A DNA stretch of 64,000 nt from Lachnospiraceae bacterium (GCA_024682835.1 JAIKYU010000096.1:3101-67100); one strand, 5' to 3'; counted from the stretch's first letter, positions 631-17,599 are shown. The notes: generated by a model from the letters alone, not told the origin. Program-made: numbers and translations.

Positions 631-3126
631 TCAGGAATCCTCGTTCGTCTCTTCCCCGTTGCCGCTTTGGATGTCATCCTCAGGTTTTGACGACGCAAAC
701 GGATCATCGTGATTGTCCGCAAGCGGATCCTTCTTCAGCTCCTCAAACGGATCCTTCTTCAGCTCCTCAAGCGGATCCTTCTTCAGATCGGCAAGCGGAT
801 CCTTTTTCATCTCTTCAAGCGGATCCTTCTTCAGCTCCTCAAGCGGATCCTTTTTCATCTCTTCAAGCGGATCCTTTTTCATCTCTTCAAGCGGATCCTT
901 TTTCATCTCTTCAAGCGGATCCTTTTTCATCTCTTCAAGCGGATCCTTTTTCATCTCTTCAAGTGGATCCTTTTTCATCTCTTCAAGCGGATCTCTCCTC
1001 AGCTCCTCAAGCGGATCCTTCTTCAGATCGGCAAGCGGATCCTGTCCGTCCAGAATATCGTGCATGGACAGATCGCCATCATCGAAGTCGCCATCGTTGA
1101 TGCTGCCGTCAACAAAGTCGCCCACGAGACCATCCCCGTTCAAATCCATTCCGGTAGAGCTCTCCGCCGCAAACTGTGCCATCTCATCAAGCTGCGACGA
1201 AAGCTGCTTCTCGTAAGCCTCCCGTTCCTTTCGTTCCTGCTCGTCCCGCTGACCGATCCAGACATACGGGTCCTGCTGGCTGCTGCCGGCATTGAGGAAG
1301 CCGTAATACGGCGTATCGAGGCCGCCGCCGGCGCCGGGCTCCCCATGGGTGTGCGGAGAAGCTGTTCCCGTAAAGGCCTGACTGCTCTCATCCGTCTCCT
1401 CATCGAAGAGACTCTTTCCTCCCACATCGAAGATGGTTTCAAATCCGTCATCCTCCGTTTCCCTGTGGGAGAGCAGATCCGACATCGCCTCATTCCGTTT
1501 CGGAGTGACCTGCGTATTTGTCGGCTTTCCTTCGTCGTTTTTGGTTCCCGTAAACTGGGTTCCTGTCTGCGGCGTGACAGAGCCCGGCTCGGTTTTGCTG
1601 CCGTTAAACTGCACATTTTCGGGTCCGTTTCCGGCATTCTTGCTGCCGAAGGCATCACCCACGCCGGGGGTGGGATTGCCGCCGCTCATCAGTCCCTTGT
1701 CCTTCAGATATCCCGTCACGGAGTCCACGCCCTTGTCAAAGACATAACCGGCAACTTTTTTCACCGGATAGGCGGCGATTTTCATGATTGACGTGGTGAT
1801 GGTCGCCCCCTGGGTCATCATGATGCCTTCCCGCCTTCCTGCTTCTGCGCTCAGAATTCCCGTCACCACGGGCCCCACCTGTGTGATGGCATAAGCGCCC
1901 GCAAGCGTAAAGGCCATCCTGGTGATATAATCCACTGCCGGCGTCGTTCCCTCCCCGAAAAATGCAATTTTACCCGAAAAAACCAGTCCGATCACGCTCA
2001 GGTAGACATTCATTCCCACAACGGTTCCGTAACCGGAAAACAGCCGTCCGAGGAACAGCTCCTGCCATTTTTTAAAGCGTTCGCCGTCGTCCATCGGCAT
2101 GGTCGCCGCAAAAAACGGTTCCACCAACAGCAGAAGAAGCGAATCAAAGATCCTCGCGATCATGCTGACCGCCATAATTCCCAGCAGATAGATGTAAAGA
2201 ATCGCCCCGCCGATGAGCAGGAGGTAGTCCATTCTCCGGATATCAAAGGTCTTCAGCACCTCGTAGAGGAGTGTCCGCTTCTTGTGATTGTAGATGCCGC
2301 TGTTTACGGAATCCCCCCGGTAGTAGGTCAGCCGGTATTTGTCCTCCAGGCCGAAATCGGCCACCTGCGATGCCTTTGACTTGTCTGCCTTGGAAAGCGC
2401 CGCCGACCGTGTCGAGGAGTTGTAATACACCGCATCGGCGAAGTCCTGTTCCCTGACCGCGTCCAGTGTGGACATCGTGAACAGGATATCCGACACCGCC
2501 GACTGATGCGGGTTGGTGGCAATGACAACGGCCTTCATCACCGCATCCCCCAGGGCGACCATAAACAATGCCATGACCGGAATGAGGATGAATCGAAGGA
2601 GCGCCTGTGCCGTCATGCGCATCACCTTGCCGACAGGTCGTCCTTTTTTGTCGCCCAGGCTGATATCGCCCACGGATTTGACGGTGGCGATGACCGCAAC
2701 CAGGAAACACAGTGCAAAACTCGCCAGAATCATTCCAAGCATGGCCTGCCGGATCACGTCCGACTTCACCAGTGCAAGGAGGAGGGAGCCCTGCCGTTCC
2801 ATTTTGCCCCCGTTCTGCACGTAGACGGGATCGATGCCCGCAAACATCCTGAAGGTCCCCTCCACCGCATCCAGCGCCCAGAGGACCACCCTTGAAACCT
2901 GAAACAGTTTGTCATAGATGAAGTTTTCAAAAAGCGTCTTAACCAGCTCCACCTGAATTGACAGGGCCGCTTCCAGAATCGGGAGCAGGATGTTCTCAAA
3001 CAAAAGCTTCATGATCTCGGACATGATGCTCTGGATTTTATTAAAGACAGGCGAAAGCGCGTGATCATACACCCAGTTGATCGCGTCCTGAAGCCAGCCC
3101 AGTTGAACGTAGGTCATCCCGTTCAT
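631..3126 (-). CDS. VirB6/TrbL-like polytopic membrane protein, paralog 1, with long acidic repeat tail
   Basis: Several hydrophobic segments; shares P[ML]DDGxxFKxWxE[LM]F with the two ORFs at 8206-11693; same operon as VirB4/VirD4. The VirB6 label rests on topology and context. Confidence 0.7.
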   Translation of the reverse strand: MNGMTYVQLGWLQDAINWVYDHALSPVFNKIQSIMSEIMKLLFENILLPILEAALSIQVELVKTLFENFIYDKLFQVSRVVLWALDAVEGTFRMFAGIDPVYVQNGGKMERQGSLLLALVKSDVIRQAMLGMILASFALCFLVAVIATVKSVGDISLGDKKGRPVGKVMRMTAQALLRFILIPVMALFMVALGDAVMKAVVIATNPHQSAVSDILFTMSTLDAVREQDFADAVYYNSSTRSAALSKADKSKASQVADFGLEDKYRLTYYRGDSVNSGIYNHKKRTLLYEVLKTFDIRRMDYLLLIGGAILYIYLLGIMAVSMIARIFDSLLLLLVEPFFAATMPMDDGERFKKWQELFLGRLFSGYGTVVGMNVYLSVIGLVFSGKIAFFGEGTTPAVDYITRMAFTLAGAYAITQVGPVVTGILSAEAGRREGIMMTQGATITTSIMKIAAYPVKKVAGYVFDKGVDSVTGYLKDKGLMSGGNPTPGVGDAFGSKNAGNGPENVQFNGSKTEPGSVTPQTGTQFTGTKNDEGKPTNTQVTPKRNEAMSDLLSHRETEDDGFETIFDVGGKSLFDEETDESSQAFTGTASPHTHGEPGAGGGLDTPYYGFLNAGSSQQDPYVWIGQRDEQERKEREAYEKQLSSQLDEMAQFAAESSTGMDLNGDGLVGDFVDGSINDGDFDDGDLSMHDILDGQDPLADLKKDPLEELRRDPLEEMKKDPLEEMKKDPLEEMKKDPLEEMKKDPLEEMKKDPLEEMKKDPLEELKKDPLEEMKKDPLADLKKDPLEELKKDPFEELKKDPLADNHDDPFASSKPEDDIQSGNGEETNEDS
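697..1041 (-). repeat. In-frame 24-bp tandem repeat, 15 DP[LF]-initiated units (consensus peptide DPLEEMKK)
   Basis: GGATC recurs every 24 nt from about 701 to 1041; AAGCGGATCCTTTTTCATCTCTTC is identical five times over 841-960 and once at 793-816. Confidence 0.97.
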
Positions 3127-3144: not shown

Positions 3145-4299
3145 CTATCGAACCCGTATCCTTTGTCCGGCCGTGAACACCAGCGCAGCCGCCGCAAGCA
3201 GCAGAACCGCCGCACAGATCCCCACAAGCTTCCAGGGAATCTCCCCGCGCCGTTCGATGACAAAACTATAAAACCGCATATTGCCTGTTGCATCGGATAC
3301 CGTGATATAGTAATGCCCGGCGGCAGCCAGCACGTGCGTGGGCGAAACGGCAGGCTGTCCGTTGTACAGGATCTCCACCTGTGCATCCTTCTCCGACACA
3401 TCAAAGGCCACCTCGCCGGTGAACATCCCGTTATGGATCTCCCCGTCCCACTTAATCGACGGCGGTGTCGTGTCCCGGACAAAGGTCTCCGAAAAGTCTT
3501 CGGGAAGACCGGTGATCCTGCTTTTGGGCCGGAAGCTCACTTCATAGAGTCCGTCCTGTATAAGCTCAAGGTATTTCCCGTCCTTCACCTCCACCGGCCG
3601 GTGATCCACTAAGACAGATGCGACCTCATAACTCTCCGGCGCCCACAGAAAGGATTCTGTCACGGGAATCTGCGTGCTGACGATCCGGAAGGTGCCCGAG
3701 ATATAGCTGCGCTGCTCCGCCTGGTCTCCATGGGCGATAAAGGCGTACTGTCCGGTCTCGCGAAAGAAATAATGCCCCTCCTCATCACAGGAGGCGGTCA
3801 CATCCTCACCGTCCCTTGTCACGGCAAAGATCGACATGCCGCCCTCCGGCATCAGCGCCACCGCATGATCCGCCCAGCTGCCCATCGGCGTCGACAGGCA
3901 AAGGGCGCTGCCGGTCGACAGGATATAGCGGTACAGGCCGCTTCCCCTGTCAAAACCAGTCTGAAACCCCGCAAGGGGCATGACCCTGTGATCCGAGTCC
4001 TCCACGAAGCGGTCCAGGATTTCATCGGACGGAAGCATCTCCCGGATCAGATTTCTGGCGTCCTCATCCTCAATCCCGTCATAGATGGAACCGGCGGGAT
4101 TGCTGCCGATGGTGTAGGGCGCATCCCGATCGATGTCCTCCTGCATCTCATCCAGCAGCTGCTGCTTCTCCTGCTCCGTCATGCCCTCCGGAAACTCATC
4201 CTCCTCCGCATAAACGGGAACAGACAGCCATGCGGTCACAAGCAGCACTGCTGCCAGACAGAGCCCGGTTTTTCCGACGCTTCCTGCCATCTTCCGCAC
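3145..4299 (-). CDS. Surface protein with signal peptide, Ig-like modules and C-terminal TM anchor (paralog of 11765-13726)
   Basis: N-terminal signal (..PVYA/EE); RDTTPP...VSDATGN Ig-like motif; C-terminal TM followed by QRIRVR. Confidence 0.75.
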   Translation of the reverse strand: MRKMAGSVGKTGLCLAAVLLVTAWLSVPVYAEEDEFPEGMTEQEKQQLLDEMQEDIDRDAPYTIGSNPAGSIYDGIEDEDARNLIREMLPSDEILDRFVEDSDHRVMPLAGFQTGFDRGSGLYRYILSTGSALCLSTPMGSWADHAVALMPEGGMSIFAVTRDGEDVTASCDEEGHYFFRETGQYAFIAHGDQAEQRSYISGTFRIVSTQIPVTESFLWAPESYEVASVLVDHRPVEVKDGKYLELIQDGLYEVSFRPKSRITGLPEDFSETFVRDTTPPSIKWDGEIHNGMFTGEVAFDVSEKDAQVEILYNGQPAVSPTHVLAAAGHYYITVSDATGNMRFYSFVIERRGEIPWKLVGICAAVLLLAAAALVFTAGQRIRVR

Positions 4300-4311
4300 A
4301 CGGCAAGGCGC

Positions 4312-4617
4312 TTAACGCCCCTTGCCGCCGATCTGTGCATGCGGCTGCATCTGAGGTTCCTGCATGACCTGTCTGGCCACCGCGCGAGCCTGACGAACAC
4401 GCTCCTGATGCCTGGCCTCCTCCTTGGCGACAAGCTGCTCAAAGGTGATGATCCGGACCCCGGGTCTTGCTTCCTCACTCTGCGCGGTGTCGCCGCCGAT
4501 CTTCAGGCGCTGCGCCGGCTTAAAGCCGTTCTGCTTTCTTCGATCCCGCTCCTGTTCAAGCACGGAGAGACGTTTTGCCCAGATCGCCTTGTTTTTTTCG
4601 CTGTCAAAGTATGCCAT
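4312..4617 (-). CDS. Small soluble charged hypothetical protein (101 aa)
   Basis: AGAGGTGG RBS and ATG; 12 and 21 nt gaps to neighbours. Confidence 0.75.
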   Translation of the reverse strand: MAYFDSEKNKAIWAKRLSVLEQERDRRKQNGFKPAQRLKIGGDTAQSEEARPGVRIITFEQLVAKEEARHQERVRQARAVARQVMQEPQMQPHAQIGGKGR

Positions 4618-4638
4618 ATCCCACCTCTTTTCGAATCC

Positions 4639-5469
4639 TTACTCCATGCCGGACAATACGGCATTCAGGAGCGTTGCCTGCGCGGCCTGTCTGCCGGAAA
4701 AAACCGCCACATAATGCTCCTTCGGACCGCCGGCGATCTCCTGCATCTGCAGTGCATTCGGGAAGCTCCTTACCAGCGAGATGGCGTCCCGCTCGGAAAA
4801 GATGCCCATATTGATCGCCCGGTCGCGGATATCCTCGCCGAGAGCGATGGCATCCGTATAGGTGCGCGGAGTGATGAAGCTGTAGTTGTCCGTCTTTTCC
4901 GCCGTCACCTGTACGGTATCCATGACGCCGACGGAATAGCCGGTCATCAGCGCCAGGGAGTCCGTGTAATCATGCAGCATCGTCACCAGGAACAGACCGC
5001 ATCGGCTGTATTCATCCGAGACGGCATAGCCCGTGAGATTCCGTTCGGAGGAAATCCTTCCGAAGGCCACATCCGCCGCACCGGTGTCAAGCATCGTCAG
5101 CGCCTCATTCACAGTGGACGTCTCAATGAGTTTCAGCTCCAGTCCCTCCGTTTCGGCCAGCGCGGCAGCAATTGAGGGTTCTGTTCCGGCAAGCTTTCCC
5201 GTGTCATCATGATAGGCGTAGCGGTCGTCTCCGAAAACCACCGCTGCCGTCAGCACGCCCGGCGTCACCAGCCTGACCTCTCTGCTTTTTCCTTTCCCGA
5301 TCGTTGCAACCGCTATCAACAGAATGATCAGAATGACCAGAACGAGTGCAATAACCGGCAAAACCCAGGGACGACCGCCAAGGAGACCGCCAGATTTCAG
5401 TTTGTCCGTAAGACCGGCAAGCAGACCGCCCGGACCCTTTTTTTCACCGTTTTTATTCTCTTCCGCCAT
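4639..5469 (-). CDS. Family 3 (polar amino acid) substrate-binding-like protein with N-terminal TM anchor
   Basis: G..Y.Y.D..G.L.G.E...A.ALA..EGL.L...L.TG.ADV...RISSER...SDEY pattern; single N-terminal TM and no lipobox. Confidence 0.75.
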   Translation of the reverse strand: MAEENKNGEKKGPGGLLAGLTDKLKSGGLLGGRPWVLPVIALVLVILIILLIAVATIGKGKSREVRLVTPGVLTAAVVFGDDRYAYHDDTGKLAGTEPSIAAALAETEGLELKLIETSTVNEALTMLDTGAADVAFGRISSERNLTGYAVSDEYSRCGLFLVTMLHDYTDSLALMTGYSVGVMDTVQVTAEKTDNYSFITPRTYTDAIALGEDIRDRAINMGIFSERDAISLVRSFPNALQMQEIAGGPKEHYVAVFSGRQAAQATLLNAVLSGME

Positions 5470-5484
5470 GATACTTTACCCCTT

Positions 5485-8202
5485 TCACATGGTGAACAAC
5501 GCTTCTATTCCGTCGCCCGCCACAATATTCACGTTGGTACGCTCGCTGGGCGAGGTGATGACAAAGGCCCGTCCGCGTCCGTTGTTGATGATGTCATCCT
5601 GTTCGCTTTCATTGATGGCGCCGGCATTCTCATAAAGCTTCACCAGATCGGTCATATCGTTGGGCGCCAGCGGGAAGATGAAGCTGTACTGGCTCGCGTT
5701 GATGATGGCCGTGGATTTGCGTGCCAGCTCCTCGGTGCCCACAAAATCCTTGATATTCTGCGTGATGACGATCTGCATACCGTTGTATTTCCGGATGCGC
5801 TTGGCCAGCTGGAACATGAAATCCAGCGCGATCGGGAATTTCTCGTCAATAAAGACATGCGCCTCATCGATGACGACGACGATCTTGCGGTTGGCGCCGT
5901 AGGCCATGTTGTATTCCCGGTTTTTGATGACCTCATTGTCAAGCCACTTCAGCACCAGCAGCATCTGCGCATTGGCCACTGTCCCGTTCTTGTTGGCAAG
6001 AAGAGACTGGAAATCGAAAACCACGAAGTTTTCATCGGTCGTGATGGACGCCGGTCCGTTCCAGAGCTGTGAATCTCTGCCGCCGGAGGCAAATTTGCTG
6101 ATGTAATTGGTCAGCACGCGCAGGTTGTTCTTGGAATAATCCCCCTTGGTCATCTGATAATCGTTCAGGATCTTGTCATACAGGTCGTCAAAGGTGGGAT
6201 AATCCTCCGCGGTGAGCTTTGACAGATCGGTGTACTCGTCGATCCCCTTTTCCTCGTACATCTGCGCCGTGACATTGTTCAACTGCTCCAGCGCGTCATT
6301 GCTGATCCCGGGCAGAATCTGCCGGTAAAACTCCTCCAGAAACTGCAGGTGAGTGGAGAAGCTCACCGCGCTCTCATTACCAAGGTTTCCGCTGTCCTCC
6401 CCGTTTTCCGTGTCATCGGAAAGGGAGGTGATGATGTGGAACGGGTTGAGGCGCCCCTGCGTGGCACTGCCCACATCGATCACCTTGCCGTGAAGTCCCT
6501 TGGCCATTTTCGTGTACTCGTTTTCCGGATCCAGAATAAAGATCTTGGAGTTTTCCGCGGCCAGCTGTGCCAGAATGGACTTGGTGGCATAGGATTTACC
6601 GGATCCGGATTTACCGATGATGACCGTATTGGAATTGACACGCTCGCTGTCTCTCTTAAAGAAGTCGACAAACACCGGCACACCGGCGGAATTGCCGATG
6701 AAAAGTCCGTTCTTGTCGTTCAGGCTCTTGTAAACAAAAGGAAAAGCCGCCGCAACGGAACCGGAATGGATGCCGCGCTCATACTTTTCGAAGGCATCAA
6801 AGCCGCCCATGGATCCTGACACATAGCCCTCGAATTCCTGCATGAACATATCCGTCACCTTGAAGCCCTCTTCGGCCAGCTGTCTGCGGACCTCCTTCTT
6901 CATGGCGTTCACCGCGCTGCTGTTCATCTTCACGCCGCTTTTGGTGGCCTCCGAGAGCTTGTAGTCATTCACCTGAATGTAGGTGTTCACATTGAAGAGC
7001 ATCTCGTTCTCGCCCTGCAGGAGTCTTAACACATTGGCCAGCGCCTGGATCTGGGTGTTGAGATCGATGATCTTGGAGGCGCGCCCGGTCTCGTTATGCT
7101 GGCTGCGCAGCTCCTCCAGGGACCGGTCAATCTGACGGATGGCCTTGCCGCGCTCCACCGGCGTCATGCGCATCACCACCTTGGTGCCGACATCATTGTA
7201 GAGCGTCGCCGCCCAGGCATTGCCCACCACCACCGGATAATCGCGCAACCTGAACTGATGAGTGATCAGATCATCATACCAGACCTGCCTCGTGGTGAAT
7301 TTGACCCTGTCCGGCAGAATCCAGTCCATGTACTGTTCGGGTGCCAGATGATCCGCCTCCCGCTCGTCAAAGGTCATGCCGTAGTTGTATTTGAGGAAGA
7401 CAGCCAGTTCCTTTCCGGTCAGCTGATGCGCTTCGATGTTGTTCTGATTAAACTGCGTGACACAGTTTTCCGCCTGGCTCTGAATCAGCGCGCGATCCTT
7501 GTCAATAAACACCACGTAATGGAAGGGTTGAAAGATCCTTTCCTTGAAGTTCATGGTCTTAAGCTGCTCGATGCGGTCCTGCACGATGCCCACCCGGACC
7601 GTCAGCTCATCATTGGTGAGCAGCCCGTTCATGTAGGCTTCCTCGAGGTCGGCAAGCTTGTCCTGTTCATTGGCGATACAGTCGTCATAGACCAGCGGCC
7701 TGTCCAGCTTGACTAACAGCACCTGCTCCCCATCCACCGCCGTCCGGAGGATTCCGCCGAACACACGGTCGATCATGCTGTTCTGCCGGTTTTCCGTGTA
7801 GAAGCGGAATTCCACGGAGGGAATATTGACCACCGTGGCGCAGTATTCTCCGCCGTATTCGATGAATTTCCCGTCAATTCCTGTGAAGGATGTGATGTCC
7901 TCCACGGAGAGCGCGTCCCCCTTTTTGCTCTCCCCGTCGCCCCGTTTTTTAAAGCTTCTGGGTCTGCCGAGATAGCGCAGGAAGTAGATGATCATCAGAT
8001 ATCCCTTGTCGTCGTCAATCGGGATGATCAGCGCCGCGGTAATCACCGCCACGATGATGGCCATAGCCCAGTGTCCGGGGACGTTGGCCATCGCCAGCAT
8101 CACCGTGAGTGCCGCGCCGATGGCTCCAACGAACACATCGACGACCTCCAGTCCCGGAAACAACTCCAGTCTGACTTTTGTTTTCTTAGGTATTACCCGC
8201 AT
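5485..8202 (-). CDS. virB4: VirB4-family T4SS ATPase with fused N-terminal PrgI/VirB3-like TM domain
   Basis: Walker A GKSGSGKS, Walker B VVVIDEAH, RIRKYNG and ITQNIKDF motifs; two N-terminal TM segments. Confidence 0.9.
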   Translation of the reverse strand: MRVIPKKTKVRLELFPGLEVVDVFVGAIGAALTVMLAMANVPGHWAMAIIVAVITAALIIPIDDDKGYLMIIYFLRYLGRPRSFKKRGDGESKKGDALSVEDITSFTGIDGKFIEYGGEYCATVVNIPSVEFRFYTENRQNSMIDRVFGGILRTAVDGEQVLLVKLDRPLVYDDCIANEQDKLADLEEAYMNGLLTNDELTVRVGIVQDRIEQLKTMNFKERIFQPFHYVVFIDKDRALIQSQAENCVTQFNQNNIEAHQLTGKELAVFLKYNYGMTFDEREADHLAPEQYMDWILPDRVKFTTRQVWYDDLITHQFRLRDYPVVVGNAWAATLYNDVGTKVVMRMTPVERGKAIRQIDRSLEELRSQHNETGRASKIIDLNTQIQALANVLRLLQGENEMLFNVNTYIQVNDYKLSEATKSGVKMNSSAVNAMKKEVRRQLAEEGFKVTDMFMQEFEGYVSGSMGGFDAFEKYERGIHSGSVAAAFPFVYKSLNDKNGLFIGNSAGVPVFVDFFKRDSERVNSNTVIIGKSGSGKSYATKSILAQLAAENSKIFILDPENEYTKMAKGLHGKVIDVGSATQGRLNPFHIITSLSDDTENGEDSGNLGNESAVSFSTHLQFLEEFYRQILPGISNDALEQLNNVTAQMYEEKGIDEYTDLSKLTAEDYPTFDDLYDKILNDYQMTKGDYSKNNLRVLTNYISKFASGGRDSQLWNGPASITTDENFVVFDFQSLLANKNGTVANAQMLLVLKWLDNEVIKNREYNMAYGANRKIVVVIDEAHVFIDEKFPIALDFMFQLAKRIRKYNGMQIVITQNIKDFVGTEELARKSTAIINASQYSFIFPLAPNDMTDLVKLYENAGAINESEQDDIINNGRGRAFVITSPSERTNVNIVAGDGIEALFTM

Positions 8203-8205
8203 ACG

Positions 8206-10230
8206 CTATTTCCTCGACTGATCGAACGGTTTGTTGCCGCCGTCCTGCTGCCCGCTGCCTGTCGCGTGATCATCCTTGAGCAAATCATCGCCGTCCAGAA
8301 GATCCTTCATGTCTAGCTTGCTGCTGTTTCTGCCGCCCGAAGTCAATATTGAAGACCTTGTGCTGCCTCCGGCGCCCTTTCCTGCGTTGCCGGCACCCGG
8401 TGCCAGCGACAGATCATCCAGATTCGGCTCCTCCATCAGGAGATCTTCCGCATCGTCGTCCCCGTCATTGATCCCGCCTCCGGTTGACATGGGAGGCGCC
8501 TGCTGACTCCCGGTGAAGGTGCCGCCGGTAGATTGTCTGGTGCTATCGGGAAGCGGCGTGTCTCCCGTCAGATCCGACGGGCCGATCTCTCCCGGTGTCA
8601 CGGACGACACGGAAGAATTGCTGTTCTGTGTCGTCCCCTGAGAAGTGGTGTTCGGGGTATCACTTTTCTTACCGGAGAACAGGTTGCTGTCGCCGGCTCC
8701 GCCGTCTGTTTTGCCGTCAGGTGTGATTGCGCTTCCGCCCTTGCCCGGGCCGCCTGAAAAGCTTTGGATAATACCGTCCGTCACCTTGTCGATTCCTTTT
8801 TTCATGCCAAACTTGGCAGGCGTGGCAGCAATGTCCATCATTTTGCCGGTAAACGCCATTCCCGCGGCGGACGACTCGCCTTCGATGCCGGCCGCTGCGC
8901 TGCTTAAGATGGAAGTGACAAGCGGGCCCGCCGAGACGATGGTTGCCGCGCCGCCGATCAGCAGGAGCATGCGCATGAGCATATCCGTCAGGATGTCTCC
9001 CATATCACCTCTCGAGGTAAAGGCGATCTTTCCGCTGAAGACCATCGAGCAGATCAGCAGGTAGATATACATCGCCACTACCATACCGTAGCCGGAGAAC
9101 AACCTGCCGAGGAACATCTCCTCCCACTTTTTGAAATGCTCTCCGTCGTCCAGCGGCATCGGAGCGATGAAGAACGGCTCGATAATCAGCAGGACGATCA
9201 CGTCAAAGAGGCGGCTGACAAACAGAAACAACGCGGTTCCAAGGACAAAGATAAAAAGAATCGCACCGCCGATGCCCACCAGATAGTCGAGCCTTCCCAC
9301 GTTGAAGGTAGCGTCCACATCCACGGAGCTCGCATAGTCCTTTTTCCCCGTGTAAAACGGTTCCCTGAACCTGTCCGTCAGGCCGTAGTCAGAGGCCTCG
9401 CCAGGATGCTTTTCCAGATAGGCCGAGCGGGTGCTGTAGTTGTAGCCTAAAAGCATATTGTCCCAGTCTCCGATCCGCGAACTGGCGGAGGCATACTGAT
9501 TTTTGAAGCTGAATTCCAGACGCTGTCCGCCTTTGTGTTTGACACCGTCCTTATCCACCGCGCCCAGCTCATCGTCCACCGCGTCCAGCGAGGAGATGAC
9601 AAACAGGGTCTGGGCAATGGTGACATTCTCCGACAGGGTCATGGCGTTGGTGACGGCGACCAGAACCGCATCTCCGAGAACGATCATAAAAAGGCCAAGA
9701 AGCGGTGCCGCGACCATCCGAAGCATCGCCCTGGCCAGATTCCGCAGCACCTGTCCCACCGGCTGCGAATTCTGGCCGCCCATCTCACCGATGGAACGCA
9801 CCGTCGCGACGATGGCAAACAGGAAACAGAGGACAAAGGAAATCATGATGACGATGCCCATGGTCTTCGTGACGAAGGGTGTGCGTACCAGCACCGACAG
9901 AAGCGACCCGTGGGCGCCCGTGGTGGTGTCCGTCACCTCGGTTTTCCCAGCCAGCACGTCAAACATGCTCTGCATCATTTCCAGAATGAGCAGAAAACCT
10001 TTTTCAATCGCATACATAAAACGCCCGTAGATCCGCATTATGTATTTTCCCACCGTCTGCATAATCAGGGAAAACGCGGTCTCCAGGAGCGGTCCCAGAA
10101 TGGTGTTGAACAGCCATTTGAAGACGTCCGACAGGAGGTTGGACACAAAGGAAAAAATCGGATTGAGCACCTTGTCAAAGACGTAATTAATGGCGTCCTG
10201 AATCCAGCCCAGTTGTACGAAGGTCATCAT
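8206..10230 (-). CDS. VirB6/TrbL-like polytopic membrane protein, paralog 2, with S/T/G-rich acidic tail
   Basis: QLGWIQDAIN start matches paralog 1 (QLGWLQDAIN); PLDDGEHFKKWEEMFLGRLFSGYG; many TM segments. Confidence 0.7.
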   Translation of the reverse strand: MMTFVQLGWIQDAINYVFDKVLNPIFSFVSNLLSDVFKWLFNTILGPLLETAFSLIMQTVGKYIMRIYGRFMYAIEKGFLLILEMMQSMFDVLAGKTEVTDTTTGAHGSLLSVLVRTPFVTKTMGIVIMISFVLCFLFAIVATVRSIGEMGGQNSQPVGQVLRNLARAMLRMVAAPLLGLFMIVLGDAVLVAVTNAMTLSENVTIAQTLFVISSLDAVDDELGAVDKDGVKHKGGQRLEFSFKNQYASASSRIGDWDNMLLGYNYSTRSAYLEKHPGEASDYGLTDRFREPFYTGKKDYASSVDVDATFNVGRLDYLVGIGGAILFIFVLGTALFLFVSRLFDVIVLLIIEPFFIAPMPLDDGEHFKKWEEMFLGRLFSGYGMVVAMYIYLLICSMVFSGKIAFTSRGDMGDILTDMLMRMLLLIGGAATIVSAGPLVTSILSSAAAGIEGESSAAGMAFTGKMMDIAATPAKFGMKKGIDKVTDGIIQSFSGGPGKGGSAITPDGKTDGGAGDSNLFSGKKSDTPNTTSQGTTQNSNSSVSSVTPGEIGPSDLTGDTPLPDSTRQSTGGTFTGSQQAPPMSTGGGINDGDDDAEDLLMEEPNLDDLSLAPGAGNAGKGAGGSTRSSILTSGGRNSSKLDMKDLLDGDDLLKDDHATGSGQQDGGNKPFDQSRK

Positions 10231-11693
10231 TTCGAGCCTCCTTTTGCGGACTTCATCAGACCGGACAGGACATCCGCTCCCTTCTGGACACCCTTGCTGA
10301 TTCCGCTGGTTGCGGCACCAAGGCCGGCACTCACACCCTTATCCACCACGCCGCTGGACATGCTGAGAAAACGCGAGACCTCAGGATTGATCAGATCCAG
10401 CATGAGTTTCTGACTCTTATACACCGCGAAGCCGCCGGCAGCAATAAAAAACAGCCGGAAAATGTATTCCGTCGCACTGACCGGAGTCACATCGTAGCCC
10501 TTGCTCGCCGAGGCAAGCAACGCCCGGGCCTGGGCCAGAACACCGGCTTCAAAGCCCAGATCCAGCGAGGAACTGGTCACCACGTAAGGCAAAAGCACCA
10601 GATAGGTCTTCATGGCGATGATCGGTCCAAAAACGCTGATGGTAAAGCCGACAAACATCTCCTTCCAGCGCTTGAATTTTGCCCCGTCGTCCAGCGGCAT
10701 CATGGCGACAAAATAGGGACTCACCACAAAGAGAATGAGCAGCATGAATACGCGCACCATACACTCGATGATGAGTTTGAGATAGATAAACAGTACCAGC
10801 AACACCTCAAAGAACGCATAGAGCCAGTTGATGTTTCCCACATCGATATCCTCGAGAGCCGCCGCCTCATTCTGGAAATGCTGACCGCTCAGATAGTAGG
10901 ATTCATTGGATTTGTCCCGAAGCGCATCCTTGACGATGAGATAAAAGATCAGATCGCAGGCGCGCGTGTCCTCGTTCGGTTTTGCCTGCCGCTTCGCCGC
11001 GATGGCTTTTTCAATCTGAGACTGCTTGGAACCTCTTCTGGGGTTTTCCGAATAGTTGGACAGTGCCTCGCTCACCAGACTTGCCGCATCCCTGTTGCTG
11101 CTCCCGTAGATGTTGTTGGGCATATACTTGGCCACGGAAGTGATGGTCACCCCCGCCAGCTTTACCGTAAAGATGCAGACCAGCGGGATCAGGGCAAAGG
11201 TGAGACAGGCCTTTGCCGTCTGTCTCAGCACATGACTCACCGGCTTCTTCATCTCTCCGATGCCCTCGCCCATGGACCGGATGACCGCAAAGATCGTGAT
11301 GATAAAACACAGGACAAAGGCTCCCGCGGTCATGCCAAGCACAGCATTGACCACCACGTCGCTCTGCATCAGCACATCGACCAGGGAGGAATTCTTCGTC
11401 ACATCCACATAGCCCGAGGTCGCCTCCATTTTTCCGGTAACGGTATTCTGCATATAAACACCGACCGTGCAGGAAAACACATCAAAAATCCGTTCAATGA
11501 TGAGCATGATCTTGAGCAGCAGGACGAAAATGGAGAAGAGGATGTGACCCAGTGCCGCCATGATCATGCCCGAAACCAGATCCCATAAAAAGTCGAACGC
11601 AATCATGATGACCGGCATCAGAAATTTGTTGAAAATATCCGCCAGCAGGTCCTCCAGCACCGATATAAAACTCAAGGAAACCGGAATGTTCAT
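10227..11693 (-). CDS. VirB6/TrbL-like polytopic membrane protein, paralog 3, short tail
   Basis: PLDDGAKFKRWKEMF motif; same TM layout; 4-nt ATGA overlap with paralog 2. Confidence 0.7.
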   Translation of the reverse strand: MNIPVSLSFISVLEDLLADIFNKFLMPVIMIAFDFLWDLVSGMIMAALGHILFSIFVLLLKIMLIIERIFDVFSCTVGVYMQNTVTGKMEATSGYVDVTKNSSLVDVLMQSDVVVNAVLGMTAGAFVLCFIITIFAVIRSMGEGIGEMKKPVSHVLRQTAKACLTFALIPLVCIFTVKLAGVTITSVAKYMPNNIYGSSNRDAASLVSEALSNYSENPRRGSKQSQIEKAIAAKRQAKPNEDTRACDLIFYLIVKDALRDKSNESYYLSGQHFQNEAAALEDIDVGNINWLYAFFEVLLVLFIYLKLIIECMVRVFMLLILFVVSPYFVAMMPLDDGAKFKRWKEMFVGFTISVFGPIIAMKTYLVLLPYVVTSSSLDLGFEAGVLAQARALLASASKGYDVTPVSATEYIFRLFFIAAGGFAVYKSQKLMLDLINPEVSRFLSMSSGVVDKGVSAGLGAATSGISKGVQKGADVLSGLMKSAKGGSK

Positions 11694-11764
11694 GTGTCCT
11701 CCTGTTCCTGTAGGTCAAAGGCTATATGATGATATATGCATCAGACCGGAAACATCCACGCGAC

Positions 11765-13726
11765 TCACCGCACCCGCACGGTGGTCTTGACCCTTCTGAG
11801 GAAGATGATCAGGCCGCCGATCAGCGCAATCACCATCACGATGGCCAGGATGGCAAACACATTGATCCGGTACTGCACGGCAAAATCATAACTGCTCTCA
11901 TTGCCTGCCTGATCCGCCACCACAAGATGGTACCGTCCCGCCTGGGTGACCAGCGTGATCAGCTGTCCGTCACTGATCACCTCATTGCCCCGTGTCAGTC
12001 TGGCGGACGCGATGTCATCGGACAGATAGTCAATATGCGCCGCGTTGGGCTCCGTGCGGATTCGCGCACGCGGAGGAACGGTATCCCGGACAAACGAGAC
12101 ACCTGTGGTTCCGGCATCGCCTTCAAAATCAATCTCCCATCTGCCGTCTTTGGATATGCTGGCCACCGTCCCGGAAATCAGCGCCTTGGTCGTGACGTCT
12201 TCATCCTCATACCGCACAGCAGCGATTTTCATGCTCTCCGGTGCATTGACAACACCCATATCCGGCACGCGTCCGTTTACAATACGGAAACGCATCATCG
12301 GCCGGTTTTGACGGTAAAAACTCTCATAATCCAGATTGTCGATCACCGGAATCAGAATGTAATCTCCGATTCCTTCAATATAGTCGCCGGCATTGTACTC
12401 GATCTTCTCCCCGCTGCGGTACAGCTCGTAACGCAGCTTCTCGGCAGGCAGGAAGACGACGGAGCTGTTTGTGACCATTCCGTCCGGAATACTGGACGAA
12501 AAGCTGTCTCCGGTCAGAAGCGAGATGCGGTAATATCCCGTTCCGGAATCGTACTCCGTCGACAGACCGTTTGCCGCGGACACAAACCCCACGGGTTCCT
12601 CTTTCTTTTCGGGTTCCGGTTCAGGCTCCGGCTCAGGCTCAGGCTCCTTCGTCTCCTCCGGATTGCCCGGGAGAAGCACCTGTTCCTCCTGTGCCAGATC
12701 GGCGAAAGACTGCAGCTCTGAAGGCTCCGGCGCCACAAGCGGCGTGCCGTCCAGTCCCGCCGTATACTGAATACGGAAGATGAAGCGTGCCCGCTCAATG
12801 GTCTGCTGCCATCCGGGAAGACTCTCCGAACCGTCCTGCGGCACATAGAACTGAACGACATAGGTACCCTCGTTCTTGATCTGTTCCTTGTTGGTAAAGC
12901 CGACTGCCTTGCCGTCTCTGGTCATGCGCACGGAGACGCCGCCCGGCACGTCAAAGATCGCCGGACGGTTGGAAATCGAGCCGTTGGCGATGTTGGTATA
13001 GATCGCGTAGAGGTCGTTGAAGCGCTCCTCATAGATCTGATAGTTGTCATGATAGGATTCGGAAAGCGTGACCGTATTGATGATGGGTCCCACCGGATCC
13101 GATTCCAGCGCGGCAATGTCCGGCGTCAGCGCCTGCGTCCACTGATCGATGGTGCTGCCCAGCGCCTGTTGCGTGATGGCATTGCCGGAAACATCCTTGC
13201 CGCCTCCGTTGACATACGAGTAATAGGCATTTCCGGATACGTCCACACTCTGTCTGAGCTGCTGCTGGACCTGCTGCTGGATGTTGATCCGCTGCTGCTG
13301 CTGGATGTTATACAGCGGGTAGTAGGTGATGACCCGTCTTCCGTTGACGGTGGTGTTGCCCCCGCCGCCTGTCGTGGTTCCGTAGGACGCACCACCGTTT
13401 AAGAAGCTCCCGGTCCCCATGGAGCTTGTCAGTCCGCCATTTCCGTATACACCGTTTAAGTACCCGCCGGTCTGTGTGGCGATCTGCCCCAGAGACGTGG
13501 TCTGGCCGCTGCTGAGCGCTCCGCTCGTCTGCGAAAGCCCGTTGGCGATCTGTCCAAGGGTCGCCGCCTGATTGTTTCCTGTGCTCTGCGTCCCGCCAAG
13601 AATCCCGGTCAGCGTGCTGTTGAGGCCGCCTCCCGTGATCGTGGCCTGTGCCGTTTCCCGGCACAGCGTTGTGCATGTGATTCCGCACAACAGAGCAATC
13701 GCCAGTTTTCCGGATAATTTCTTCAT
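11765..13726 (-). CDS. Large surface protein: signal peptide, G/T/N/Q-rich region, Ig-like modules, PE linker, C-terminal TM
   Basis: Signal peptide (..TAQA/T); RDTVPP...VADQAGN motif; EPEPEPEPEPEPE linker; TM followed by RRVKTTVRVR. Confidence 0.8.
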   Translation of the reverse strand: MKKLSGKLAIALLCGITCTTLCRETAQATITGGGLNSTLTGILGGTQSTGNNQAATLGQIANGLSQTSGALSSGQTTSLGQIATQTGGYLNGVYGNGGLTSSMGTGSFLNGGASYGTTTGGGGNTTVNGRRVITYYPLYNIQQQQRINIQQQVQQQLRQSVDVSGNAYYSYVNGGGKDVSGNAITQQALGSTIDQWTQALTPDIAALESDPVGPIINTVTLSESYHDNYQIYEERFNDLYAIYTNIANGSISNRPAIFDVPGGVSVRMTRDGKAVGFTNKEQIKNEGTYVVQFYVPQDGSESLPGWQQTIERARFIFRIQYTAGLDGTPLVAPEPSELQSFADLAQEEQVLLPGNPEETKEPEPEPEPEPEPEKKEEPVGFVSAANGLSTEYDSGTGYYRISLLTGDSFSSSIPDGMVTNSSVVFLPAEKLRYELYRSGEKIEYNAGDYIEGIGDYILIPVIDNLDYESFYRQNRPMMRFRIVNGRVPDMGVVNAPESMKIAAVRYEDEDVTTKALISGTVASISKDGRWEIDFEGDAGTTGVSFVRDTVPPRARIRTEPNAAHIDYLSDDIASARLTRGNEVISDGQLITLVTQAGRYHLVVADQAGNESSYDFAVQYRINVFAILAIVMVIALIGGLIIFLRRVKTTVRVR

Positions 13727-13743: not shown

Positions 13744-16113
13744 TTACGCGCTTTGTGCCTTACGCACTGCCGCGGCGTCCTCATCCGAGAGCATTTTCTC
13801 AAAGCGGTTCAGCATGCGGTCCACATCATCCTCGCCATCCGCCGCTTCTTCCTCCGAATGACCGCCATCGTCATCATAATCAGATAAATCCTCCGGATCC
13901 ACGGTGATTCCTCCGTCTGTTGAATCGCCGTCCGATCCGTTTTCATCATCGCCGTCTCCCTCATCCTGTCCGGCTTCGAAGGATGTTTCCTCCGCATCCT
14001 CCCCCTCGGGCTCATCGTATCCTGCAGTTTCCTCTGTCGTCTCCGTCTGCGCGTCATCCGCCGCAGCCCCGCCGGCTTCTCCGTCTCCCTCCGCTCCGGC
14101 CATATCAAGAACAATGTAATTGCGTTCATCGAGATCGTAATAGATCTCGCTTCCGAAGAACACGTTGCTTCGCACGTCGGTCAGATCCATCTGCCCGAAT
14201 TCATAGAGCGGGCATTTGTAGCTCGGCGTAAACTTCGTCCTGAGCGGATAGTTGTTGAAGGTGACCACAATGGAATTTCCCGTGGACTTTGCGTTATTTA
14301 AGCGCGTAAGCTCCGAGGGGTAAATGAGTGGCCGCACCTGGGTCTGCGTGGACACATTGATGTTGTTCATCTTGTCCTTTAAGCCCGTGGAGGTGCTCTG
14401 TGTCCGGACGGTCATATTGCCGCACATCTTGGAGAACTCCTCACAGGTCGGAATGTCGTTGGAACCGATGAAGAGCTTGATGCCGCAGTTGCCCTTGACG
14501 ATATCCGCAACCGTTTCGCCATAGACATTCTTCAGCTGCGCGAAGGACTGCACGATCATCTCAAACCAGATCTTACGGGAACGGCCGACGGTGATCATCT
14601 TGTCAAACTTGTCGATCTTGGGCATGTTACCGAACTCATCCAGCAGGAAGAAGACGTTGCGCGGGAGAGACAGATCCTCCCTGGCGCTGGCCACTTTGAT
14701 GAGTGCCTTGTAGATGCAGAGAATAAAGACCGCCGCCAGCGCGTGTCGGGTGTCCTTTTCGTCCGGTATCTTCAGGAACAGAGCCGTCGGCTGATCCGCA
14801 AAGGTCCGGGGCATGATGTCCGTCGCACTGGTCAGTGCGCAGAGGCCTTCATCGTTGAACATGGAGAGCTTGTCCAGTGCGATACTCATATAGGAAGCCA
14901 GAGTCTGATCCGCGGCGGACAGCACCTGCCGCGAGAGGCCCGCCGCCTTGGAGAGCTTGTCCCTGCCGGTGAAGTAATCCTTGAGCGCCTTATACTCGTT
15001 TTCCGAATTGCCGATGGCTTTATTGATGTTGTAGAAGCAGAACTTATCCTTGGTCATCTCAAGCTTCGGATCCGCTGAATCCTCCAGCATGCCCAGGCAC
15101 ACGGCCATGATGATCGAACGCGCGCCCTTTTCCCAGACGGGATCCTTTTCATTCTCGATGGGGCAGATGACGGAAATCAGGTCATTTAAGTCCTCGTAGC
15201 ATTCGTCGTAGATCTTCTGCTTTTCCACACGGATCTTGTTGATGAGATCCGTGCCGACCGCCCAGGCGCAGCCGTCCCACTCGTACCAGTCCTCCGCGTC
15301 GGCAAACTGCTCATCGGAATGCATGCGTTTTAAGTCCGGATAGTCCGCGATGCTGTCCGTGTGCTCCCGGATCTTATTTCCCAGGTTTAAGTAAGCCTGG
15401 TAGTTATCGAAGATATCTCCCAGCGGATTCCAGCGGAAGGAGCTGTAGGGATCGCGCAGATCCAGCACCATGCAGTTATAGCCGTGGTCATGCAGAAGTT
15501 TTGAATGCATCTGGAAGAGCTCGCCCTTGGGATCCGTACAGATCATGGAGGATCCCGCCGCGCTGTGGCCAAGGATCTGCACTACCGGGTTGACAAAGGT
15601 GGTCGTTTTACCTGAACCGGTGGCACCGATGATAATGCCGTGCGCCGGGGAGATGATGTTGATGTCCATATCCCGCGTGCGCGGATTGTAGACCGCATAC
15701 AGCGGGACACCATCCTTTTTCAGCTCAGGAAGCTTCTTAAAGGTCTTTTTCGGGAAGAGCTCGTTGCGCTCCTTGTCGCTCATCCAGCGGGAGTTTTCCA
15801 GAGAGCCCTCCACGCGGTCGCGATCGCCGCTGGATCTGCCCTTCAGCAGACGGTTTGTGGATTCCGTGGTGAGGGACAGACGGTATACCACATACAGGAC
15901 GATCAGCACACCGAGTTCAATCAACCCGTAATACAGCTGTTCCTTCCCGAACAGCGTGCGGGCTGTGACGACCAGGCGAAAGGACTCGCCCGCCTGCCAT
16001 TCATTAAGAGACGCCAGAAGCACGCCCGAAATAGCGCCGAGCACAATGACGGAAGCGATTCCGCCGAGCAAATAGAGCAGCATCTGTCTGACATCAATTT
16101 CCGGCTTATCCAT
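13744..16113 (-). CDS. virD4: VirD4/TraG type IV coupling protein with acidic C-terminal tail
   Basis: Two N-terminal TM segments, GSLENSRW, Walker A GATGSGKT, TDPKGEL, FLLDEFGN, GRSRKI, IVQSFAQL. Confidence 0.92.
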   Translation of the reverse strand: MDKPEIDVRQMLLYLLGGIASVIVLGAISGVLLASLNEWQAGESFRLVVTARTLFGKEQLYYGLIELGVLIVLYVVYRLSLTTESTNRLLKGRSSGDRDRVEGSLENSRWMSDKERNELFPKKTFKKLPELKKDGVPLYAVYNPRTRDMDINIISPAHGIIIGATGSGKTTTFVNPVVQILGHSAAGSSMICTDPKGELFQMHSKLLHDHGYNCMVLDLRDPYSSFRWNPLGDIFDNYQAYLNLGNKIREHTDSIADYPDLKRMHSDEQFADAEDWYEWDGCAWAVGTDLINKIRVEKQKIYDECYEDLNDLISVICPIENEKDPVWEKGARSIIMAVCLGMLEDSADPKLEMTKDKFCFYNINKAIGNSENEYKALKDYFTGRDKLSKAAGLSRQVLSAADQTLASYMSIALDKLSMFNDEGLCALTSATDIMPRTFADQPTALFLKIPDEKDTRHALAAVFILCIYKALIKVASAREDLSLPRNVFFLLDEFGNMPKIDKFDKMITVGRSRKIWFEMIVQSFAQLKNVYGETVADIVKGNCGIKLFIGSNDIPTCEEFSKMCGNMTVRTQSTSTGLKDKMNNINVSTQTQVRPLIYPSELTRLNNAKSTGNSIVVTFNNYPLRTKFTPSYKCPLYEFGQMDLTDVRSNVFFGSEIYYDLDERNYIVLDMAGAEGDGEAGGAAADDAQTETTEETAGYDEPEGEDAEETSFEAGQDEGDGDDENGSDGDSTDGGITVDPEDLSDYDDDGGHSEEEAADGEDDVDRMLNRFEKMLSDEDAAAVRKAQSA

Positions 16114-17284
16114 CCAGAACCCCCCTTTCTCTTTCTCTTTTGTACAACAGAGCCATCAGCAGGGCCAATACCAATCCGACCGTTCCCGCAAGAAACGTCT
16201 GAAAGATGTCCGTCGCCCTGCCAAGGCTTTGTCTTTCAGGATGCAGAAACCAGATGAACCACTGCACAACGGACGGAAGATTAAATCCGGCATGGACAAA
16301 AATCCCGTAGAGGATATTCCCCTCCCACATGGAGATCCGTCCGATGATCCATCCCATCACAAACGCGTAGAGAAACCATACGCTGCTTCCGTGCATCACG
16401 GAAAAAATGATCGTCGTCACGATCAATGCCGGCAGATCGGCCCATCTGCGAAGCAGACGGTTCAGCATATATCCCCTGAAAATGATCTCCTCCACCAGAG
16501 GCGTCAGCACCGCACTTTCCACAATCGTGAGCAGGATGTCGTAGCGCTGGTAGATCCGGCTCACTTTTTCCTCATAGATCGCAAACACCCACACCTTGGG
16601 AATGAAGGTGAGCAGGGCCGAGAGAAACAGTGCGGCTCCGGTTCCGAACACCAGACCCATGCCGATTTTTTTCCAGGATATCGCACTGCGGTACAATGCG
16701 GCGTCCTCAAAAAAGGTGCTGCCGCTCTTCTTTGACTTCCGGTGCAGCCTTCTGAGTGTAAGAACCACGCCGATCGCCACCAGCAGATTGGAGCGGTCCG
16801 CGAGATACTCCGCGAAGCTGTAACGCATCATGCCGGACAGAGGATAGCCGACAATGATACAGGCTAACGTGATCAGAATGTAGGAAAACATCGGTCCGGC
16901 CGCATACAGAAGGTCGCGTATGCAATAGTAAACCATCTGCTGAACCGAGAGTGGCTCCGTCGACGTGCGGAAGCTCACCGGATCCTCATCGTCGATACCG
17001 CGCCGCCTGCGTTTGCCTGCGCGTTTCTTCTCTGAGGCGAAATCCCGCTCCCTGCTTTCACGGTCAGCATCCGGCGCCTCTTCTGTCGACCCGCCGTCTG
17101 CCGCGTCGCTTTCGTCTTTGCTGTCTGCTCCCTGTGCCGCGTTCTTCCCGATGTCCGCGCTGCCCGCATCCTGACTTACGGCTTCCTTTTCCGCGTCCTG
17201 TCTGCCGCCTGATCCCTCCTGTCCCTCCTCATGAAACAGATAGGAGAGCCAGCCGAAGGGATGGAAATCCTTCTTTCCGCTCAA
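16106..17284 (-). CDS. CPBP family (CAAX/Abi) intramembrane glutamic protease with disordered N-terminus
   Basis: EEIIFRG, FSVMH and HAGFN motifs; several TM segments; 8-nt overlap with the virD4 start. Confidence 0.88.
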   Translation of the reverse strand: MSGKKDFHPFGWLSYLFHEEGQEGSGGRQDAEKEAVSQDAGSADIGKNAAQGADSKDESDAADGGSTEEAPDADRESRERDFASEKKRAGKRRRRGIDDEDPVSFRTSTEPLSVQQMVYYCIRDLLYAAGPMFSYILITLACIIVGYPLSGMMRYSFAEYLADRSNLLVAIGVVLTLRRLHRKSKKSGSTFFEDAALYRSAISWKKIGMGLVFGTGAALFLSALLTFIPKVWVFAIYEEKVSRIYQRYDILLTIVESAVLTPLVEEIIFRGYMLNRLLRRWADLPALIVTTIIFSVMHGSSVWFLYAFVMGWIIGRISMWEGNILYGIFVHAGFNLPSVVQWFIWFLHPERQSLGRATDIFQTFLAGTVGLVLALLMALLYKRERERGVLDG

Positions 17285-17305: not shown

Positions 17306-17599
17306 TTACTCAATGGGCAGATATCCGGAAAGCCCGGTCACATCCAGCAGATCCCTGAGGGAATCACTGACATTACGCATCACAAAGCTTCCTTTCGCCG
17401 CACGCATCTTTTTCTGCACGACGGTAAGGGCCCGCAGACCGGCAGAGCTCAGATACCCGGTATCGGTCATATCAGCCACAAACATCGATCCCTCTCCCGC
17501 CGCAGTCGCCTCCGCGACAAGCGCAAGCATGGCCTCCTGCGTGGCAGCCGCGTTGTTGCCGTCGATGCGTTCCGGTGCTCTGTAAATCGTTTCCTGCAT
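17306..17599 (-). CDS. STAS-domain anti-sigma-factor antagonist
   Basis: DMTDTGYLSSAGLRAL motif with the phosphorylatable Ser; DLLDVTGL C-terminus; 97 aa. Confidence 0.88.
   Translation of the reverse strand: MQETIYRAPERIDGNNAAATQEAMLALVAEATAAGEGSMFVADMTDTGYLSSAGLRALTVVQKKMRAAKGSFVMRNVSDSLRDLLDVTGLSGYLPIE

Follow-up and report, generated by a model that had tools for sequence, protein, structure and literature searches.

A type IV secretion operon of a Lachnospiraceae bacterium encodes two predicted membrane-retained Ig-like proteins that share a conserved cytoplasmic tail

A 64,000-nucleotide stretch of DNA from a Lachnospiraceae bacterium (GCA_024682835.1, JAIKYU010000096.1:3101-67100; called the window here, with positions counted from its first letter) carries a type IV secretion system (T4SS) operon. 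Two of its genes encode Ig-like surface proteins of 384 and 653 amino acids, named Big384 and Big653. Both proteins are predicted to be retained in the membrane by a C-terminal transmembrane (TM) helix, and both end in a short cytoplasmic tail that is conserved and of an undescribed kind. They belong to a large family that no Pfam or NCBIfam model covers, and most of its short members (900 aa or less) share the conserved cytoplasmic end. The tail is tentatively interpreted as an uncleaved docking or retention motif that would hold a wall-spanning adhesin or stalk at the membrane complex of the T4SS, a reading that we place a little below an even chance.

Two Ig-like proteins with C-terminal membrane anchors

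The initial annotation had proposed from shared motifs that the distal parts of the two proteins align, and that the first module is present once more in the larger one. Both proposals are borne out. Residues 111-369 of Big384 match residues 387-634 of Big653 in BLASTP (26% identity, E 5e-19), and the alignment contains every quoted pair: FDRGSGLYR/YDSGTGYYR, FRIV...APES in both, RDTTPP/RDTVPP and AGHY..SDATGN/AGRY..ADQAGN. The first module of Big653 is duplicated internally at residues ~241-320 and ~408-483 (hhalign probability 97.2%, E 3.6e-11). Judged by sequence, Big384 and Big653 are paralogs.

Big384 is predicted to consist of a signal peptide (residues 1-31), a helical acidic region (42-103), three β-sandwiches (~110-206, 215-275 and 280-350), the TM helix and the tail. 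Big653 starts with a signal peptide and a disordered G/T/S/Q-rich region (~29-212), which is followed by module A (215-320), a disordered PEPEPE linker (344-385), module A′ (388-482), two further β-sandwiches (492-547 and 554-617), the TM helix and the tail. The (PE)n linker (window 12587-12691, EPEPEPEPEPEPEKKEEP) lies between the duplicated first module and the rest of the ectodomain, and its length varies among orthologs. The AlphaFold2 (AF2) model of Big384, built with the ortholog alignment, has a mean confidence score (pLDDT) of 78.7, and the folded domains of the Big653 model score 80-92. A Foldseek search of the PDB with the Big384 model returns only tandem Ig/FN3 arrays (Sidekick-2 Ig1-4, SiiE, NCAM and GhpA; E 5e-7 to 1e-4). 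The models thus predict tandem Ig-like β-sandwiches for both proteins, and the original description as Ig-like surface proteins is a fair one.

Searches at the sequence level find no named relatives. Pfam yields only low-complexity noise, with no match above the gathering score for any of its named Ig-like families (Big_x, HYR, DUF5011 and others). A 34-sequence profile retrieves no relatives from the PDB by sequence, and an NCBIfam scan of both proteins, CTERM models included, gives 0 families at E <= 0.01. The absence of an LPxTG signal noted at first also holds, with the regular expression [LINSV]P.[TSA][GANS] matching neither protein. The boundary just before the TM helix carries a conserved Y-R-I-N in the Big653 lineage and IPW in the Big384 lineage.

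The conserved cytoplasmic tail

The hydrophobic helix is followed directly by AGQRIRVR and the stop codon in Big384 (8 residues) and by LRRVKTTVRVR and the stop codon in Big653 (11 residues), the shared IRVR/VRVR ending that had first drawn attention to the pair. Seven of the 10,076 six-frame open reading frames (ORFs) of at least 100 aa in this 3.2-Mb genome end in RVR, and the combination of this ending with a C-terminal TM helix is limited to Big384 and Big653. The terminus is therefore not common in unrelated membrane proteins of the genome, and its presence in both paralogs is beyond chance. Its codons differ between the two genes (CGG GTT CGA and CGG GTG CGG), so the ending is conserved at the protein level. 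A ribosome-binding site or other nucleotide-level constraint on the last codons is ruled out by the codon difference and by the downstream start codons, which are 18 and 71 nt away. Residues 381-384 of the Big384 tail have pLDDT values below 50 in the AF2 model, as would be expected of a motif that folds only on a partner.

Loss of the terminus in orthologs had been named in advance as the result that would tell against the proposal, and it is conservation that is found, for a motif somewhat broader than the original one. Nine of 12 Big384 homologs end in R-[VI]-R, one ends in MRVL, and two carry M-[KN]-V followed by five extra residues (...M[KN]V[QK]Q..). Among 20 homologs of Big653, 18 end in T-x-V-R-V-R, one in VQVR and a distant one in NFKVR. 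These homologs were pooled with 22 further loci that came from scanning a single genome for each species (Lachnospiraceae, Butyrivibrio, Enterocloster, Lachnoclostridium, Oribacterium, Clostridiaceae and Defluviitaleaceae), and tail positions were counted back from the last residue, P0, through the penultimate residue, P-1, to P-3, three before the last. The 36 distinct tails of the Big653 lineage, whose overall identity falls as low as 25%, all have Val at P-1 (36/36) and an aliphatic residue at P-3 (36/36), and 35/36 have Arg at P0. The Big384 lineage is looser: P-1 is Val or Ile in 21 of 25 distinct tails, and P0 is Arg in 15, Leu in 5 and Lys in 3.

A broader set of 60 was taken from the best family representatives of at most 900 aa with a C-terminal TM helix, clustered at 50% identity. 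Here P-1 is Val or Ile in 53/60, P0 is Arg in 40/60 and P-3 is aliphatic in 52/60. The entropy of P-1 is 1.22 bits, the lowest of the tail, while its neighbours P-2 to P-7 range from 2.1 to 3.2 bits. The length of the cytoplasmic tail after the TM helix is confined to 7-14 residues, with a basic cluster first and a short, strand-like stretch of alternating aliphatic and basic residues at the end. The tail is thus conserved far beyond the remainder of the protein.

The strict [IV]RVR definition was dropped in favour of aliphatic-x-[VI]-R-COOH once tails from a second system in the same genome (VTVR and LTVV) and from distant relatives were included; P0 in the generalised motif may be Leu, Val or Lys. 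The proposal of an undescribed C-terminal signal therefore stands as to conservation, rarity in the genome and the lack of a Pfam or NCBIfam model, and had to be amended as to the unit that is conserved. In a group of 740-870-aa relatives (L021:7574-10788, L020, P0127, P0129, P0160 and P0177) the V-R ending is replaced by a long, highly acidic tail with repeated D-D-W-E.

A large family encoded next to VirD4

A profile of the 270 C-terminal residues shared by the two proteins, searched against 1.84 billion cluster representatives, matches 13,744 proteins at E <= 1e-3 and 1,220 at E <= 1e-30. They are found on chromosomes of rumen and gut Clostridia and on conjugative elements. The constant neighbour of the 653-type gene is the gene for the coupling ATPase VirD4: in 24/24 foreign loci the 653-type gene directly follows virD4, in the same orientation, and in about half of them the two genes overlap by 4 nt in our ORF calls. 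The operon order from the STAS gene to Big384 is syntenic in 17 foreign loci. One carrier of the locus is a cultured strain, Butyrivibrio sp. WCD3002 (L010).

The initial annotation had instead described a repeated building block of a surface protein plus VirB6. In the window each Big gene does precede a gene for a polytopic, VirB6-like membrane protein, at gaps of 18 nt (Big384) and 71 nt (Big653). As a fixed unit, however, the block finds little backing in other loci. In Butyrivibrio a T4SS pilin gene separates the 384-type gene from the VirB6-like gene, and on conjugative elements the giant relatives described below are followed by small genes or a pilin gene. The window operon itself lacks a pilin gene in the place of the Butyrivibrio one.

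The Ig-like module is repeated dozens of times in relatives of 2,000-5,000 aa (recurring ...TDxAGN...F.ID.T.P), many of which also share the terminal module, the TM helix and a basic tail at the C terminus. Three giant relatives were looked up in metagenome and metagenome-assembled genome contigs (loci L026-L029), and all three lie directly after virD4 in a conjugative-element context. P0056 (2,226 aa, tail ...RRRIKMRIR) is accompanied by ParA, a large SNF2/methylase protein, a MobL relaxase and SSB; P0039 (3,957 aa, ...RRIKAA) by an ArdC-N protein and a T4SS pilin; and P0043 (2,981 aa, ...NPYKKNK) by a T4SS pilin. The tails of giants thus fall into distinct classes, with KKRKK noted as well. 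In a class of Clostridia T4SSs the family would appear to be a general surface component linked to VirD4, with the window proteins as its minimal members.

Possible functions of the tail

The initial annotation left two roles for the C terminus, sorting or docking, and docking fits better. A Sec signal peptide would export an ectodomain of three (Big384) or four (Big653) Ig-like β-sandwich domains, and the single C-terminal helix would stay in the membrane, leaving 8-11 residues in the cytoplasm. Both proteins are conserved structural parts of a Gram-positive-type T4SS resembling that of the mycoplasma integrative and conjugative elements (ICEs). The end of the tail (aliphatic, basic or any residue, Val/Ile, Arg, carboxylate) may serve as a family-specific short linear motif that remains uncleaved and docks at the cytoplasmic face of the T4SS. 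VirD4 would be the best candidate for its partner because it is encoded next to the family everywhere, followed by the VirB6-like proteins and VirB4. As an adhesin or scaffold, the Ig-like stalk may extend through the cell wall and mediate contact. Docking or retention is favoured by conservation at the cytoplasmic end, the constrained length, the alternating pattern and the universal adjacency to virD4. It has a functional precedent in the mycoplasma ICE, which needs the surface lipoprotein CDS14 for conjugation (PMC6030558).

Several points weigh against docking. Genes of the Big384 type are not adjacent to virD4, and adjacency of genes is in any case weak evidence for physical contact. Giants with other tails (RRIKAA and NPYKKK) keep the VirD4 adjacency, which is thus independent of the motif. 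P0 varies (R, L, V or K), and the five extra residues after the motif in a few members indicate that a free C-terminal carboxylate is not essential. Part of the conservation may reflect shared ancestry and the positive-inside rule.

The last point leads to the strongest rival, in which the tail has no specific partner and is a generic stop-transfer anchor. The TM helix and the basic tail would fix the topology by the positive-inside rule, and the V-R ending would result from descent and a mild biophysical preference at the membrane interface. Arg and Lys are abundant in the tails, as in those of any C-terminal anchor, P0 and P-2 tolerate many residues, and giant relatives in the same context use RRIKAA, NPYKKK or KKRKK. 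However, the positive-inside rule predicts neither a fixed aliphatic residue nor a fixed end point. P-1 is the most conserved tail position (53/60 overall and 36/36 in the Big653 lineage), it is kept in two lineages that share ~25% identity while neighbouring positions vary freely, and the protein ends almost always exactly one residue past it. A generic anchor is somewhat unlikely, yet it keeps substantial weight because P0 is variable, a few tails are extended and the giants use other tails.

A bolder extension of docking makes the tail a coupling signal that would link a contact-sensing stalk to VirD4 and VirB4, Big653 pairing with VirD4 and Big384 with VirB4, so that engagement of a target cell would gate transfer. 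We regard it as distinctly unlikely. If it were true, it would constitute an unrecognised outside-in module in a very large class of Clostridia T4SSs, including the 2,000-5,000-aa versions on conjugative elements.

A new sorting signal processed by the CPBP protease of the operon is about as improbable. Some CPBP enzymes process C-terminal sorting domains (myxosortase, and MrtJ and MrtS with their CTERM domains). The operon enzyme would cleave at or near the TM helix, or trim the last four residues as Rce1 does on CAAX proteins, and so release the Ig-like proteins or re-anchor them at the surface. The Big C termini do resemble the tripartite sorting domains (LPXTG/sortase, PEP-CTERM/exosortase and the Myxo-, JDVT- and Synerg-CTERM domains with Mrt enzymes) in having a boundary motif (Y-R-I-N), a TM helix and a basic cluster, and a CPBP gene in the operon. 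That gene lies directly before virD4 in 17 chromosomal-type loci and is present in the second system of the genome, and the window enzyme is weakly similar to MrtJ and MrtS. Unlike in the tripartite domains, however, the conservation of the Big proteins sits at the cytoplasmic end and not at the outer boundary, where the motif differs between the paralogs (YRIN and IPW). Neither protein matches an NCBIfam CTERM model, and the enzyme falls far below every Mrt cut-off (MrtJ, 40.2 against 75 bits; MrtS, 34.7 against 130; Mrt_core, 24.2 against 100; MrtC, 19 against 195), so that it is best assigned to the family only in a generic sense.

The expected co-occurrence of the Big proteins with T4SS genes is seen (virD4 in 24/24 foreign loci). 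For CPBP the picture is mixed, a CPBP gene being adjacent in the 17 chromosomal-type loci and not in others. In three Defluviitaleaceae-type loci with tails LRVR or VRVR (L022-L024) tblastn finds no CPBP gene within 10 kb, and none lies within 8-10 kb in the conjugative elements L026-L029, which include the tail RRRIKMRIR. The genomes of L022-L024 each have several CPBP genes elsewhere according to whole-genome Pfam matches. Conversely, the L021 relative directly precedes a CPBP gene and yet has a long acidic tail in place of the motif; no T4SS gene is visible in the stretch examined there. As the tail persists without a nearby CPBP gene, a sorting signal cleaved by CPBP is unlikely, and with no sortase motif and a generic CPBP enzyme the sorting half of the earlier proposal is the weaker one.

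Two further explanations carry little weight. The tail might be a stability or quality-control signal read by FtsH, ClpXP or C-terminal processing proteases, setting the copy number of the proteins and not docking them. C-terminal residues are known determinants of proteolysis, one class of giant tails ends in -KAA like non-polar degrons, and the short tail length is strongly constrained; but no direct evidence points this way, and the alternating aliphatic/basic pattern and the T4SS link are left unexplained, so that this is highly improbable. Hardly credible is the view of the Arg-rich C terminus as a translocation signal that makes the Big proteins VirD4-recruited substrates: many T4SS substrates have positively charged C-terminal signals recognised by the coupling protein, and the genes adjoin virD4, but a Sec-type signal peptide and a stop-transfer helix that leave only 8-11 cytoplasmic residues are the architecture of a resident membrane protein, not of a soluble substrate.

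The operon and its second copy

The minus strand of the window carries one long operon that runs from the STAS gene (17599) to the third VirB6-like gene (631; Table 1). It is flanked by housekeeping genes for a 4HBT thioesterase, peptidase U32, YceG, RNase J, a MiaB-type enzyme and ThiI. virD4 lies directly upstream of the Big653 gene with a gap of 17 nt. By context, Big384 and Big653 belong to the T4SS-associated class, since they lie inside an operon with VirB4, VirD4 and VirB6-type genes and conserved synteny.

Table 1. Positions of the operon genes and of the membrane and tail segments of the two Big proteins
Feature	Position in the window	Strand	Basis
STAS-domain protein, operon head	17306..17599	-	Pfam STAS 1e-10; same position in related loci
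CPBP (Rce1-like) intramembrane protease	16106..17284	-	Pfam PF02517 3e-19; overlaps virD4 start
VirD4-type coupling ATPase	13744..16113	-	Pfam T4SS-DNA_transf 2e-49; NCBIfam conju_CD1115 281 bits (cut-off 250)
Big653, 653 aa, predicted type I membrane protein	11765..13726	-	ORF; AF2; hhalign repeat; 20 homologs
Big653 C-terminal TM helix, aa 622-642	11801..11863	-	Hydropathy; AF2 helix 623-645
Big653 cytoplasmic tail LRRVKTTVRVR	11768..11800	-	Stop codon 11765-11767
VirB6-like polytopic protein, 488 aa, directly after Big653	10227..11693	-	MMCAP2_0566 family 171 bits (cut-off 90); at least 6 hydrophobic segments
Second VirB6-like protein, 674 aa	8206..10230	-	NCBIfam match; 37% identical to 831-aa paralog
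VirB4-type ATPase	5485..8202	-	NCBIfam VirB4_plasma 552 bits (cut-off 590); Pfam P-loop_TraG
TM-anchored SBP_bac_3-like protein, 276 aa	4639..5469	-	Place between VirB4 and Big384 conserved
Small charged protein, 101 aa	4312..4617	-	Directly upstream of Big384; position conserved
Big384, 384 aa, predicted type I membrane protein	3145..4299	-	ORF; AF2; Foldseek; 12 homologs at 24-98% identity
Big384 C-terminal TM helix, aa 356-376	3172..3234	-	Hydropathy; AF2 helix 356-379
Big384 cytoplasmic tail AGQRIRVR	3148..3171	-	Stop codon 3145-3147
Third VirB6-like protein, 831 aa, directly after Big384	631..3126	-	MMCAP2_0566 family match; long acidic repeat-bearing tail

All three VirB6-like proteins have multiple hydrophobic segments and score above the cut-off of the MMCAP2_0566 conjugal transfer family (150-171 against 90 bits). 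They have no match to Pfam TrbL and no PDB relative by sequence search; in view of the missing TrbL match, the label VirB6-like refers to position and topology. The 674- and 831-aa paralogs share 37% identity (E 4e-110), and both are equally distant from the 488-aa protein at 24-26%. The resulting tree (488,(674,831)) is compatible with duplication of a two-gene unit and does not require it.

The very acidic tail of the 831-aa protein consists in part of ~15 tandem DPLEE[ML]KK octapeptide repeats (window 697-1041), and VirD4 and the 674-aa protein likewise have long acidic C-terminal tails. These could, as a matter of speculation, be electrostatic partners for the basic Big tails. VirB4 (5485-8202) has two N-terminal hydrophobic segments, as though VirB3 were fused to it.

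The same genome carries the complete system once more as a paralogous copy, split over two contigs (C124:18566-29714 and C85:536-11404). The first part carries STAS, CPBP, a 581-aa Big protein, VirD4 and VirB6-like genes and the second VirB4, the SBP-like protein, the small protein and a 393-aa Big protein. Its VirD4 and VirB4 are 77% and 73% identical to the window copies. The Big proteins end in SSVTVR and RRRLTVV, which fit the generalised motif and not RVR. The gene order is reversed relative to the window in that the 653-type gene lies directly upstream of virD4, and the 384-type gene is followed not by a VirB6-like gene but by one for a secreted protein of 1,917 aa whose signal peptide is of the lipoprotein type. 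Immediately upstream of the STAS gene lies one for a 417-aa protein with a C terminus that by eye resembles a 3D (MltA-like) domain. A homolog of T4SS_pilin (VirB2-like), 51-65% identical to the pilins of related loci, is encoded at the end of another contig beside a further STAS gene (C13:11413-11733).

Relation to known systems and mobility

On the mycoplasma-ICE model VirB4 reaches 552 bits (cut-off 590), against only 155 bits on the Clostridioides CD1110 model. All three VirB6-like proteins exceed the cut-off of the mycoplasma MMCAP2_0566/Mbov_0396 models. These scores suggest that the window T4SS is a relative, within Lachnospiraceae, of the transfer machinery of mycoplasma ICEs, the nearest system that has been characterised. 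The channel module of the mycoplasma ICE (ICEA), CDS5-CDS19, includes CDS5 (VirD4), the membrane proteins CDS15, CDS16 and CDS19, and CDS17 (VirB4); the surface lipoprotein CDS14 is essential for mating and is proposed to promote contact between donor and recipient (PMC6030558). Both systems encode a dedicated surface-exposed protein beside the membrane channel genes, exposure being predicted for the Big proteins. However, CDS14 is lipid-anchored at its N terminus and has no detected sequence similarity to the Big proteins, which have a C-terminal TM anchor with a conserved cytoplasmic tail, occur as two paralogs with Ig-like arrays and belong to a walled host.

A relaxase-less chromosomal T4SS related to MPF_FATA has been described in Patescibacteria, for which functions other than conjugation are proposed (PMC12102498). 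The window cluster is likewise MPF_FATA-related and without an adjacent relaxase, a likeness of gene content, and it differs in phylum and in the clade of VirB4. No relaxase or integrase is visible in the window or within 10-kb flanks around the chromosomal-type loci, and no DDE transposase in the window. A tblastn search of this genome for MobL-type relaxases was negative; other relaxase families were not searched.

Strong Big homologs occur in 3/81 genera of the host's family. With this patchy distribution and two copies in one genome, the system looks more like a product of horizontal spread. The remaining operon proteins are far less conserved between genera than VirD4 (58-87%) and VirB4 (54-91%). 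A tblastn search of PLSDB with the shared C-terminal 267 aa gives no match, a giant relative gives two weak partial matches and VirB4 at most 30% identity over 66% of its length, so that the system is on no plasmid of that collection. Literature searches gave nothing specific on this T4SS type or on the tail; papers on the Tn1549-type ICE and the 'Hodor' megaplasmid concern different modules.

Also built from Ig-like domains are PrgB/aggregation substance of pCF10 and the thioester adhesin of pLS20, T4SS-encoded surface proteins that reportedly promote mating contact. Gram-positive plasmid adhesins such as PrgB carry LPXTG and are anchored by sortase, which links them covalently to peptidoglycan. 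The Big proteins, by contrast, lack LPXTG and would be anchored in the membrane, so that their tail can reach cytoplasmic parts of the machine.

Implications

To our knowledge, how the T4SS and conjugation machines of Gram-positive bacteria cross the thick wall and recognise their partners is poorly understood. Known conjugation adhesins are linked by sortase and are physically separate from the membrane machine. If the tail of the Big proteins docks to the machine, deletion of its last four residues would provide a handle on the coupling of surface contact to the transfer of DNA or protein in gut bacteria. The tail motif and the family together may serve as a sequence signature for annotating these T4SSs, and even if the tail is only an anchor, the family would still be a useful marker for this type of T4SS.

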